Origin: a virus
Reading direction: 5' to 3' (one strand)
Virus record (IMG/VR): IMGVR_UViG_3300037277_000110
Span: 1-64,000 of that record
DNA: 64,000 bases
Of this stretch, positions 12,063 through 50,423 are shown piece by piece. Position 1 is the stretch's first letter, and the number at the start of each line of letters is the position of its first letter. The notes under the pieces were generated by a model, which was given only the letters and a program-made list of their open reading frames with translations, ran no database searches and had not been told where the DNA came from. Made by a program: the position numbers and the translations under genes.

Positions 12063-12100
12063 CAAAAATAAGGTTTTTTTTAATGCATGTTTTCTAACAT
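12063..12100 (-). promoter_or_regulatory. Late promoter: TATTTTTG plus ATGTT-N4-AACAT operator
   Basis: -7 element at 12063-70; palindrome at 12087-100, 16-nt gap. Confidence 0.7.
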
Positions 12101-47611: not shown

Positions 47612-48070
47612 TTAGCTTGGGCTCAAAGAAGCTGATCTTGAACTTGCACGGCTAATATCTTCAATAGTATGTGTCGTTAAAACACGGATATGAGGTCTGT
47701 TAGAACCTCTATCCAACCAGATATAACTATACCCGGAAATACCATTAACAGTTGTGTTTCTACCCTTAACTAAATGTTCAACGTTAATTCTCCGAATACC
47801 TGTCCGGGTCTTACGATCCCATTCAATGTATTGAATATTAATCCACTGTTCATTTGCCACCTCTCGAATCCTGGCATGAAACTGAGCCTTGGTTAGCGAG
47901 GTAGTGTACCTAATATCCTTGTACCGTTGACCATCAGTATCCGAATAATAAAATACAGTTTGATTAGAAGAGTTTTGATAGAAGTCATGCACCTTATTGG
48001 AGCATAATAGTAAGTTATAGCTTACTGTGTCACCGCCCAATTTTACAATGGGAACAATTACTAAACTCAT
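47612..48070 (-). CDS. Hypothetical late protein (two similar beta-rich halves)
   Basis: ORF track; own promoter TAAATTTG 48097-104 with operator 48105-118. Confidence 0.6.
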   Translation of the reverse strand: MSLVIVPIVKLGGDTVSYNLLLCSNKVHDFYQNSSNQTVFYYSDTDGQRYKDIRYTTSLTKAQFHARIREVANEQWINIQYIEWDRKTRTGIRRINVEHLVKGRNTTVNGISGYSYIWLDRGSNRPHIRVLTTHTIEDISRASSRSASLSPS

Positions 48071-48142
48071 AGCATATATTTTTTAAAGTTATGCTACAAA
48101 TTTAATGTTTTATAACATATAGTTTTTTTAATATATTTTTAG

Positions 48143-48150
48143 TATGTTTG
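48143..48150 (+). promoter_or_regulatory. Sigma-A -7 element TATGTTTG of the tRNA operon
   Basis: Consensus match 4 nt before leader ATG (likely near-leaderless transcript). Confidence 0.75.
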
Positions 48151-48154
48151 CCTT

Positions 48155-48235
48155 ATGAAAACACAAACACTATATTGTCTCTATTTATCGTTGTCAAGTT
48201 ACTTTAGTTTCTTGAAGAGGCAATATTATGTTTAA
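48155..48235 (+). CDS. Attenuator leader peptide MKTQTLYCLYLSLSSYFSFLKRQYYV
   Basis: Manual translation; codons 6-20 all Leu/Tyr/Cys/Ser/Phe, the amino acids of the downstream tRNAs. Confidence 0.8.
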   Translation: MKTQTLYCLYLSLSSYFSFLKRQYYV

Positions 48236-48273
48236 TTACATAAGACTAAACTATAAAGCCTCTTGAAGAAATT
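48206..48273 (+). promoter_or_regulatory. Antiterminator helix
   Basis: AGTTTCTTGAAGAGGC (48206-21) pairs with GCCTCTTGAAGAAATT (48258-73), 15/16 including one G-U. Confidence 0.75.
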
Positions 48274-48291
48274 TGAGAGGCTTTTTTATTT
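48255..48291 (+). terminator. Conditional intrinsic terminator before first tRNA
   Basis: 13-bp stem AAAGCCTCTTGAA/TTTGAGAGGCTTT, GAAA loop, U-tract. Confidence 0.85.
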
Positions 48292-48293
48292 AT

Positions 48294-48373
48294 GTTCCCT
48301 TGGTGTAATTGGCAGCCACGGTAGGTTTAAGCCCTACTCCTTCGGGGTGAAAGTTCGAGTCTTTCAGGGAATA
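48294..48373 (+). tRNA. tRNA-Leu(TAA)
   Basis: Cloverleaf; anticodon arm GTAGG-TTTAAGC-CCTAC; short variable hairpin; TTCGAGT loop. Confidence 0.9.
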
Positions 48374-48379
48374 CTAAAT

Positions 48380-48452
48380 GCTTGAGTAGAGAATTGGTAT
48401 ATCGGTCTGACTTAGGATCAGACGCTTGTGGATTCGAATTCCACCTCAAGCA
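48380..48452 (+). tRNA. tRNA-Leu(TAG), short variable loop
   Basis: GCTTGAG/CTCAAGC acceptor; TCTGA-CTTAGGA-TCAGA. Confidence 0.9.
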
Positions 48453-48459
48453 CTAAAAT

Positions 48460-48532
48460 GGAGGTCAAGCTAATCTGGTGAAAGCACGGGTCTGAAAAAC
48501 CTGAGAGTTTGGATCGAAACCAAAGGTCTCCA
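48460..48532 (+). tRNA. tRNA-Phe(GAA)
   Basis: CGGGT-CTGAAAA-ACCTG; T-loop ATCGAAA. Confidence 0.85.
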
Positions 48533-48541
48533 CAAATATTT

Positions 48542-48625
48542 GGAAGGTTTGCTAGCGGCCTAGCAATCGGTCCTGAAAACCGAGATACAAGGTAACACTT
48601 GGGGAATCGACATCTCAACCTTCCG
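48542..48625 (+). tRNA. tRNA-Ser(TGA), atypical
   Basis: GGAAGGT/ACCTTCC-G; TCGGT-CCTGAAA-ACCGA; long variable arm. Confidence 0.8.
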
Positions 48626-48631
48626 CGATAT

Positions 48632-48702
48632 GGGATAAATACCAGGGCAGTAAGGACGGTCTGTAAAACCGAACCATGAACTTTCGAGTAGTTCTTATCC
48701 CA
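48632..48702 (+). tRNA. tRNA-Tyr(GTA), short variable loop
   Basis: GGGATAA/TTATCCC-A; CGGT-CTGTAAA-ACCG; GAACT-TTCGAGT-AGTTC. Confidence 0.8.
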
Positions 48703-48707
48703 CTAAT

Positions 48708-48776
48708 GTCTGGTTACACGGTACAAAGACAGTCCGCAAAACTGATTCCAGAGTGGTTCAACTCCACTACCAGACT
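48708..48776 (+). tRNA. tRNA-Cys(GCA), atypical D-arm
   Basis: GTCTGGT/ACCAGAC with U73; CAGT-CCGCAAA-ACTG. Confidence 0.8.
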
Positions 48777-48780
48777 CTAT

Positions 48781-48863
48781 GGAAAGCAAAACCGGAAGGC
48801 CCGGTAACTTCCTGCTAAGAATGTTGATCCGAAAGGGTTTGGGTTCGATTCCTATACTTTCCG
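48781..48863 (+). tRNA. tRNA-Ser(GCT)
   Basis: GGAAAG/CTTTCC-G; loop CTGCTAA; long variable arm GATCC-GAAA-GGGTT. Confidence 0.8.
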
Positions 48864-50423
48864 CTAATGTGGATAATTAGGCCAAGTCTCAATATATTTC
48901 CTTAACATATTAGCATCCATTGATTTTACCCGGTTTATTTCTGATATATTAATTAATTCATTGCCATTTTTATGTTTACTATCTATACCGATAAAATGAT
49001 CTAAATGATAAAGAAATCCTGATACATATCCCCATTTTAATCCTAAAGTTCGAATCCGATAAAATCTTTCTGCATCTTCAGGAGCATGAGAAATAAAACC
49101 TTCATTTTCTCCACCTATTGATAAATATTCTTTTTTATTAAATATTACTGCTCCTCCATGACTTTTTTTACCATTAAATGACATATTGTGAAAAATTCCA
49201 AAAAAACTATTAAACAATAAAATATCTTGGTTTAGTTGTTCATAAAAACATCGACTCATGTGAATAAACGTTCCATCATAAGGATAAACAACTGCATAAC
49301 CTTCCCTAATCATTTTAACAGCTTCAAATATCTGATCAGGATTAACAAACACATCTGCATCCCAATTGATAACTATTGGAGTTTGTGTTAAAACGGTAAT
49401 ATTATTTAACATCCTTGTTCGATGGAAATTAGGATACCCAAACCAGATATATTCATCCGAATCTACATCTGAAAAATCATGAGTTCCTTGCTCACCTACT
49501 ATTATATTGGTATTAAAATTAGCCCTGATAAACTTGATTGTTAATTCTAAATTTTCAACCCGATCCTGACTATCGTTTTTAACCGGTATAATAAATGTAA
49601 CATCCTTTAAATCCCTTTTACCTTTAAAATAAAGACTCTTTTGGTAAATTGATCTACTTTCCCACCTACCTGGGTAAAAGTCTTTACCAGTACACGTTTT
49701 AGCTAGTGGGCCGGCAAATAAACATTCGGGTCTGATCACTTTTACATCCTTATTGTAAATTTCAGCTATTTTAGCAGCCCACCAAGAGAATGTCGAATTG
49801 GCTATGATTAAATTATTAAACTGACTCATTAAAGCCAAGTGTTCAATATCTGAACAGCCTTCTACATATTCTACATTGTCATGATTTCCAAGCATTTTTT
49901 TAGCAATAGTATAATCATCAGTAAATACATAGAAAGTTTTCGTTTTATCCTTAAAAAATTCAATGTAATAACTCGGTTGTATCTGTACATAATTTTTGTT
50001 CCCAACATAATCACCTAATCGTAAATGGACGGCCCAATCATTTTTACCCGGTATAAAGTCTGTCCGTTCAAATATAGAGTCTAAAAATCCCTGTTTAAAT
50101 TTAAATTCGTTTTTAATTTCATCCCAAACATCTTCAAAATATTTTTCAGATTGCCAATAGCCTCTAATATCTGTATTAAGTGTAAAGTAATTTTGTATTG
50201 GCTGTAGAAACATAGGATGAAAATCAAAATTAAGTTCTCTTATCTCATCATTAATCTTTATGTCTGTATCTACATTCCAACTCATTTGGAAATATTTTAA
50301 ATAATCCCATAATGGTAATGCCCATTGAGTATTATTTCGCTTTGATAACGACTTAATAAAAGCAATCTCAAACAAGTTATTACCTAATCTCCCGTATGGG
50401 AATTGTTTCATAAGTAAAGTCAT
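48864..50423 (-). CDS. Fusion: GT11 alpha-1,2-fucosyltransferase plus GT2/GT7-like glycosyltransferase
   Basis: GRLGN, GYWQSEKYF, VHLRLGDY, IANSTFSWW; then TFIIPV, WDADV, GGENEGF..PED. Confidence 0.88.
   Translation of the reverse strand: MTLLMKQFPYGRLGNNLFEIAFIKSLSKRNNTQWALPLWDYLKYFQMSWNVDTDIKINDEIRELNFDFHPMFLQPIQNYFTLNTDIRGYWQSEKYFEDVWDEIKNEFKFKQGFLDSIFERTDFIPGKNDWAVHLRLGDYVGNKNYVQIQPSYYIEFFKDKTKTFYVFTDDYTIAKKMLGNHDNVEYVEGCSDIEHLALMSQFNNLIIANSTFSWWAAKIAEIYNKDVKVIRPECLFAGPLAKTCTGKDFYPGRWESRSIYQKSLYFKGKRDLKDVTFIIPVKNDSQDRVENLELTIKFIRANFNTNIIVGEQGTHDFSDVDSDEYIWFGYPNFHRTRMLNNITVLTQTPIVINWDADVFVNPDQIFEAVKMIREGYAVVYPYDGTFIHMSRCFYEQLNQDILLFNSFFGIFHNMSFNGKKSHGGAVIFNKKEYLSIGGENEGFISHAPEDAERFYRIRTLGLKWGYVSGFLYHLDHFIGIDSKHKNGNELINISEINRVKSMDANMLRKYIETWPNYPH

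Follow-up and report, generated by a model that had tools for sequence, protein, structure and literature searches.

A codon-matched leader ORF and terminator ahead of a phage tRNA array: a candidate attenuator of tRNA supply

The stretch of DNA analysed here (the window) comprises the first 64 kb of an IMG/VR virus record (IMGVR_UViG_3300037277_000110) that is 73.8 kb long, with 33% G+C. It carries a tRNA cassette, a 793-nt plus-strand insert flanked by two minus-strand genes, one for a 152-aa protein (47612-48070) and the other for a glycosyltransferase (48864-50423). The cassette holds a candidate promoter box, a short leader open reading frame (ORF), a terminator whose 5' arm has an alternative pairing partner in the leader and an array of seven tRNA-like genes. 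A preliminary description of this DNA had proposed the order promoter, leader ORF, antiterminator, terminator and tRNAs, and all of these elements are present, including the promoter box TATGTTTG at 48143-50. In our reading, which we hold to be probable although well short of certain, ribosome-mediated transcription attenuation of the trp/his/ilv type controls the phage tRNA operon.

The leader ORF is located at 48155-48235 on the plus strand (ATG at 48155, TAA at 48233-35) and comprises 26 codons and a stop. It is the sole plus-strand ORF of at least 20 codons lying wholly inside the 223-nt intergenic region. Its codons 6-20 (48170-48214, plus strand; LYCLYLSLSSYFSFL) specify only Leu, Tyr, Cys, Ser and Phe, and on re-reading both the ORF and the run matched exactly what had been described. 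The amino acids of all 15 codons are exactly the five identities of the array tRNAs, while under standard wobble the array anticodons can read 14 of the 15 codons, with CTC being the exception. The claim that the leader contains one or more codons for every one of the seven anticodons was borne out: TAA reads TTA and TTG, TAG reads CTA, GAA reads TTT and TTC, TGA reads TCG and TCA, GTA reads TAT and TAC, GCA reads TGT and GCT reads AGT. The match had also been judged to lie beyond chance, and the statistics agree. Specifically, this is the longest Leu/Phe/Ser/Tyr/Cys run in the six frames of the 73.8-kb genome (the next longest has 12 codons), a genome which contains 2,728 equally T-rich 45-nt stretches and in which these five amino acids account for 24.5% of the codons of the phage's own proteins. 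None of 20,000 dinucleotide-preserving shuffles of 48151-48254 (104 nt) reached a run of 15 codons (maximum 12, attained twice; p < 5e-5). The codon run of the leader is not a product of chance.

Downstream of the leader lies an intrinsic terminator (segments 3 and 4; 48255-48291, plus strand), with a 13-bp stem at 48255-48284, a 4-nt loop and a U tract extending to 48291. The earlier report of a 13-bp terminator ending 2 nt upstream of the first tRNA gene (48294) was thereby confirmed. Rfam Phe_leader (24.6 bits, threshold 55) and His_leader (21.7 bits, threshold 49) both scored below threshold, with matches falling mostly on the terminator, and cmscan of 47900-49100 gave no T-box match at E <= 1. 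Separately, a 106-nt contig of one peat run (X4) matches the terminator at 48258-48293 with four differences, but past this point its sequence is unrelated and no tRNA-Leu follows, which shows that the habitat also harbours a terminator of this kind in different genomic surroundings.

The leader RNA folds with -36.9 kcal/mol (z = -5.7 against shuffles) into this terminator and a second hairpin, 1:2, which would act as an anti-antiterminator (48165-48233, plus strand). In the latter, found in both the minimum-free-energy and the centroid structures, segment 1 (48165-82) pairs with segment 2 (48216-33) around an inner stem-loop. The 5' strand of the predicted antiterminator (2:3; 48206-48221, plus strand) pairs with 48258-48273, and the extended helix runs from 48196 to 48283; it is seen when the RNA is folded without the terminator 3' arm. 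This is the alternative pairing of the terminator 5' arm and loop which had been pointed out before, and it holds at 15 of 16 positions, one G.U being counted as a pair. A ribosome was modelled by keeping the nucleotides from -15 to +13 relative to the A site unpaired, and the resulting stall window depends on this assumed footprint. In the full-length equilibrium fold the terminator has a probability of 1.0 when no ribosome is present and of only 0.02-0.13 when the A site is at codons 4-10, and from codon 12 onward the value is again at least 0.85; the 2:3 helix appears there only with segment 1 masked by an early-leader ribosome. In a kinetic version of the model, in which the transcript stops short of the terminator 3' arm, the antiterminator core is present with the A site on codons 2-15 and absent from codon 16 onward. 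The regulatory codons inside the productive stall window are thus 6-11 (equilibrium) or 6-15 (kinetic), and folding both conformers with the modelled ribosome reproduced the switch that had been proposed. The native leader loses the terminator under ribosome masking at 9 of 15 positions, whereas 0 of 150 shuffled leaders with the same terminator did so (p < 0.007). On account of this difference, the four-segment attenuator geometry is, as far as the model goes, a specific property of this sequence.

The array itself consists of seven head-to-tail tRNA-like units on the plus strand, from 48294 to 48864, separated by spacers of 2-8 nt. Only three of them pass Rfam or ARAGORN at its default settings or both: tRNA-Leu with anticodon TAA (48294-48374, ARAGORN, Rfam 44.9 bits), tRNA-Leu with anticodon TAG (48380-48453, ARAGORN, Rfam 49.8 bits) and tRNA-Phe with anticodon GAA (48460-48533, Rfam 48.3 bits), the last called by ARAGORN at a relaxed threshold and having A at position 54 of its T loop (AUCGAAA). 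The Rfam tRNA model does not match the remaining four even at E <= 1. The first of these is a tRNA-Ser-like unit with anticodon TGA (48542-48625), called by no program, whose cloverleaf was read by eye; it has an acceptor stem of 7 bp, a D stem of 4 bp, an anticodon stem of 5 bp, a long variable arm and C at position 33 (48573). It is followed by a tRNA-Tyr-like unit with anticodon GTA (48632-48703), which has a weak 2-bp D stem and a short variable arm and is found by ARAGORN only under relaxed settings, and by a tRNA-Cys-like unit with anticodon GCA (48708-48777), which has C33 and a degenerate, almost missing D arm and is found by ARAGORN only at the 80% threshold. Finally, a tRNA-Ser-like unit with anticodon GCT (48781-48864) was called by ARAGORN at the 90% threshold and gave a weak Rfam tRNA-Sec match (23.8 bits). 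We take all seven units as real but deviant tRNA genes, because every one has a 7-bp acceptor stem and they tile the region with short spacers. Apart from the array, two solitary tRNA genes are found in the genome beyond it. One is a tRNA-like gene at genome positions 66528-66613, beyond the window (85 nt, Rfam 38.3 bits), which directly follows the 3' end of a coding gene and for which ARAGORN reads a two-base anticodon 'at'; the other is a normal tRNA-Thr(TGT) at 72045, with its own terminator 3' of the gene. Neither of these two solitary tRNAs has a leader, and both directly follow coding genes.

The host of the phage is very probably a member of the Bacteroidota, as its late genes have TAnnTTTG boxes 18-28 nt upstream of the ATG, an ATGTT-N4-AACAT palindrome before the box and no Shine-Dalgarno sequences. 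Putative late-type promoters combining palindrome and box are located on the minus strand at 12070, 23220, 33156, 38576, 41885 and 48104, with the palindrome either 16 nt upstream of the box or directly abutting it, at a distance of 18-26 nt from the ATG. Ahead of the leader, the candidate Bacteroidota-type -7 box TATGTTTG is the only TAnnTTTG match on the plus strand of the intergenic region. The usual spacing between the -7 box and the transcription start is 4-5 nt (PMC6847099), which places +1 on the A of the ATG, and the leader mRNA is therefore predicted to be leaderless, with transcription starting at about 48155, at or near the ATG. Leaderless short ORFs are reported to serve as attenuators in mycobacteria (10.1101/834739), and leader-peptide attenuation has been reported in Flavobacterium (PMC9723704), which lends plausibility to attenuation in a host of this type. 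A sigma-70-like promoter on the minus strand at 48197-48169 was set aside, since the phage uses TAnnTTTG promoters.

A second leader family has the same architecture around a different set of amino acids. It was reached through a stray tRNA end in a peat contig, which led to IMG/VR contigs with large arrays, and more members were added with a structural pattern. Eight copies were found in six IMG/VR contigs (L029, L030 = L031, L033, L035, L036 and L037), which have a CheckV completeness of 3-22% and appear to be fragments of very large phages; representative prokaryote genomes do not show the pattern. All copies are ATG-initiated ORFs of 25-29 codons with the core K-H-S-(K/S)-S-F-K-F-W-S (KHSKSFKFWS), followed 3' by CCAAGGTTCGG and then by a terminator whose 5' arm TCCGAACC is complementary to CCAAGGTTCGG. 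Like the window, this K/H/S/F/W family presents a promoter, a short ORF matched to the array, a region 2 complementary to the terminator 5' arm, a terminator and an array of restricted identity. The two kinds of leader share no sequence similarity and differ in their amino-acid set, and unlike the leader of the window those of the K/H/S/F/W family have an A-rich 5' untranslated region (UTR) behind a good TATCTTTG box. Behind them, 48 of the 49 tRNAs called by ARAGORN at default settings are specific for Lys, His, Ser, Phe or Trp, that is for the residues of the core, and in every contig of the family the longest run of codons for these five amino acids sits in the leader. Two unrelated leaders (L/Y/C/S/F and K/H/S/F/W) thus each use exactly the amino acids carried by the tRNAs of their own array. 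The expectation that leader codons co-vary with the anticodon set of the array is met with at the family level, a K/H/S/F/W array standing behind a K/H/S/F/W leader.

The variation among the eight copies bears both on the reading frame and on the helices. Both indels in the core are of +3 nt and the substitutions there introduce no residue from outside the set (Lys to Ser; AAA to AAG), while in one copy a +2 nt indel just after the core alters the peptide and keeps the RNA block. At one pair of the predicted antiterminator, six copies have G-C and two have A-U; since the 3' base of this pair belongs to the terminator loop, the change compensates in the 2:3 helix only, and 21 of 500 shuffles reached the observed antiterminator covariation. 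The terminator shows one compensatory double change, from A-U to G-C. The preliminary description had asked for compensatory changes in the helices, and these were found for one antiterminator pair and one terminator pair of the K/H/S/F/W family; no homologue of the leader of the window came up in the collections searched. In the kinetic model A-site codons 2-14 of the K/H/S/F/W leader give the antiterminator and those from 16 onward do not, the boundary falling exactly where the matched core ends. L029 never loses the terminator in the full-length equilibrium fold, and its switch is seen only in the truncated (kinetic) model.

Several further features were recorded in and around the contigs of this family. 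Tandem duplicate leader-terminator units, that is two attenuators in series, precede the first tRNA in L033 (3169-3488) and L037 (8916-9227). A 209-aa fragment resembling histidyl-tRNA synthetase (HisRS) lies just past a K/H/S/F/W array, and ORFs resembling GIY-YIG/NUMOD3 and LAGLIDADG homing endonucleases are located inside or beside the arrays; the positions listed for the fragment and the endonuclease ORFs are L035 3380-4009, L029 3030-3839 and L035 7351-8244. The 155-kb record to which L035 belongs also contains a tandem pair of amber-suppressor tRNAs (anticodon CUA) that lacks a leader ORF (L039; G005:C1:56945-57096), and this pair hints at TAG recoding in the phage concerned. Four other candidates (L032, L034, L040 and L041) were rejected as chance pattern matches.

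As regards the phage itself, both its large terminase (TerL) and its portal have matches among the PHROG families. The cultured phages closest to it, at about 25% TerL identity, are those of Flavobacterium and Cellulophaga, and the public sequencing runs containing its DNA are all peat metagenomes. The closest TerL relatives have 97%, 76% and 71% identity. A syntenic relative, the metagenome contig L026, encodes a TerL, a glycosyltransferase and a 152-aa protein that are 69%, 51% and 72% identical, respectively, and keeps the gene order glycosyltransferase, 152-aa protein, TerL. Its 195-nt spacer holds a simple bidirectional terminator, lacks tRNAs and a plus-strand -7 box, does not resemble the leader and aligns with the spacer of the window only over the palindrome and promoter of the minus-strand gene for the 152-aa protein; the form with palindrome and box abutting, which precedes this gene, is kept in L026. 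To judge by this comparison, array and leader come and go as a unit. No tRNAs were found within 6 kb in relatives identified with a TerL profile at up to 49% identity (L003-L025), and almost none in the four whole records among them. Searches of IMG/VR with the 152-aa protein, TerL, and tRNA or leader patterns yielded no leader homologue, a distant blastn search of GenBank phages for homologues of leader or array returned 57-nt tRNA matches only, and a metagenome scan gave only L026, which has no array, and two short fragments. Peat DNA contigs over the region were either identical in the leader or derived from other tRNA genes, and showed no microdiversity. Two IMG/VR candidates proved to be unrelated high-GC phages (L001 and L002) and one a chance match (L038). 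On a separate note, several TerL relatives (P0035, P0066, P0069, P0079, P0093, P0095 and P0100) are 1100-1190 aa long and contain Hint and homing-endonuclease domains (PF05203, PF05204 and PF14528), which marks them as intein-containing genes; the TerL of the window has none.

Under the attenuation that we favour, transcription would begin at or near the ATG of the 26-codon leader. When the leader is read fast, or not at all, segment 2 would be hidden under the ribosome or paired with segment 1, the terminator at 48255-91 would form, transcription would stop 2 nt before tRNA-Leu and the seven tRNA genes would stay silent. A ribosome lingering on the early Leu, Tyr, Cys or Ser codons would instead cover segment 1 (A-site codons of about 4-11 at equilibrium, up to 15 in the kinetic model). 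The freed segment 2 could then pair with the terminator 5' arm, RNA polymerase would read through and tRNAs for those very codons would be made. This would constitute a feedback loop matching the supply of array tRNAs to demand, self-regulating because its products read the test codons.

A number of points weigh against this interpretation. The -7 box TATGTTTG is imperfect, with a G at -9, which is almost never seen in Flavobacterium johnsoniae promoters (PMC6847099), and the leader ATG follows it by 4 nt, compared with 18-28 nt at the late genes of the phage. Leaderless mRNAs are a minority in Flavobacteria, at 5.5% (PMC9723704), with 13% having leaders of up to 10 nt (PMC6847099). The deviant state of four of the seven array tRNAs means that possibly not all are functional. 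Stalling on the test codons had been expected to free the antiterminator; in the model, with its assumed footprint, this stands for the early Leu, Tyr, Cys and Ser codons and fails for codons 16-20, both Phe codons included, where a stalled ribosome would mask the antiterminator, and not all seven tRNAs would be sensed. In the truncated transcript the 2:3 core already has a probability of 0.83 without any ribosome, and the off state therefore depends on kinetics. The switch would likewise open upon amino-acid starvation, where this would bring no benefit. Lastly, the leader family of the window is known from a single sequence.

Among other explanations, the one that survives best, unlikely as we find it, accepts the 1:2/2:3/3:4 switch and replaces the translating ribosome as its trigger by an RNA-binding protein of phage or host, by a small RNA or by direct tRNA pairing in the manner of a T-box. 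The switch itself is well supported, whereas translation of the leader is something that we infer, and the leader has no 5' UTR, its -7 box abutting the ATG. On the other hand, the codon match is confined to one frame, starts after the ATG and ends at the stop codon, and in the K/H/S/F/W core the indels keep the frame and the substitutions stay within the set (as from Lys to Ser). Direct tRNA pairing is further opposed by the lack of a T-box or any other Rfam family at threshold, and a run of 15 specifier codons is without precedent in T-boxes. Less probable still is that ORF and terminator form a separate tiny gene, for a small peptide or a small RNA, and that the tRNAs are expressed by leaky read-through, the amino-acid match then being incidental, for example to a hydrophobic membrane segment. 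Promoter, ORF and terminator do make a complete unit and LYCLYLSLSSYFSFL is moderately hydrophobic (mean Kyte-Doolittle value of about 1.3), but the hydrophobic stretch is short, at about 15-17 residues, has many Ser and Tyr residues and contains no Ile, Val, Ala or Gly, while the KHSKSFKFWS core is basic and polar and yet matches its own array equally exactly. Moreover, the 2-nt gap between terminator and tRNA leaves no space for a separate tRNA promoter, and the ribosome-dependent alternative helix would be left unexplained. We give hardly any credence to the hairpin being a bidirectional terminator of the minus-strand glycosyltransferase operon, with the array inserted beside it and the ORF and alternative pairing due to chance: L026 has a bidirectional terminator at the equivalent site directly after the glycosyltransferase gene and the minus strand shows an A run before and a weak T run after the hairpin of the window, but the U tract is much stronger on the plus strand, chance is contradicted by the codon run (p < 5e-5) and the switch property (p < 0.007), and the leader region has no counterpart in L026.

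Attenuation by a translated leader, as preferred here, has well-known parallels. In enterobacteria, the ilvGMEDA leader contains Ile, Leu and Val codons and the thr leader Thr and Ile codons, and trpL, hisL, pheL and leuL are further examples. The multivalent leaders among them resemble the present one in having a short ORF with many regulatory codons for several amino acids, and these attenuators share with it the exclusive 1:2, 2:3 and 3:4 helices, a terminator just before the controlled genes and read-through upon an early stall. They differ in that the controlled genes here are tRNAs rather than biosynthetic enzymes, so that the output would act directly on the signal, and in that five amino acids are sampled; additionally, the setting is a Bacteroidota-type host without use of Shine-Dalgarno sequences, with an mRNA predicted to be leaderless, and there is no sequence homology, as the Rfam scores for Phe_leader and His_leader attest. 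Attenuation before genes of the translation apparatus, responding to the supply or charging of tRNA, is known from pheST with its pheM leader and from T-boxes, and these systems likewise tie translation components to tRNA status through transcription attenuation. However, pheM controls a synthetase and senses one amino acid, whereas a tRNA array stands here, and T-boxes, of which the locus shows no match, bind uncharged tRNA directly, without a ribosome and through one specifier codon.

The nearest published regulated accessory tRNA array is the trn operon of Anabaena sp. PCC 7120, a silent array of 26 tRNA genes induced by translational stress (PMC8421152, PMC10272220). As in our proposal, an accessory tRNA array is off by default and turned on when translation is impaired, but that operon is governed by the repressor TrcR and lies on a cyanobacterial megaplasmid, not in a phage, and the words leader, attenuation and terminator do not occur in the 2021 paper (PMC8421152). 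In mycobacteria, leaderless polycysteine short ORFs are reported to act as Cys-responsive attenuators (10.1101/834739); they too are leaderless and couple downstream expression to decoding speed through their codon content, and they differ in phylum, in responding to one amino acid and in controlling protein-coding operons. No publication describing the control of tRNA genes by a leader peptide was found in a full-text literature search.

Phage tRNA genes are usually regarded as passive cargo that is constitutively co-transcribed. The preliminary description had gone further than attenuation, tying the switch to host tRNAs being cleaved, uncharged or hypomodified. In its broadest form this would make codon-matched leader attenuators a general means by which phages control accessory tRNA blocks, and the present one an inducible counter-defence, releasing spare tRNAs only when host Leu, Tyr, Cys and Ser tRNAs are cut, uncharged or hypomodified; the host tRNAs concerned would mostly be A36-A37 tRNAs reading UNN codons. 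We regard this wider view as speculative and unlikely. Simple feedback on tRNA supply explains the design as well as a trigger by anticodon nucleases or hypomodification would. The cassette, of about 150 nt, is small enough for direct reporter tests in F. johnsoniae. If the attenuation proposed here is true, it would open a direct way to ask whether phage tRNAs are a response to codon-usage mismatch, to starvation or to tRNA-targeting defence. Its signature, a leader residue set equal to the identity set of the array, would be searchable across all phage genomes and would help to explain the partition of arrays into blocks of few amino acids. Phage tRNA supply would then be self-regulating, and classical attenuation would extend from amino-acid and synthetase genes to the tRNA genes themselves.

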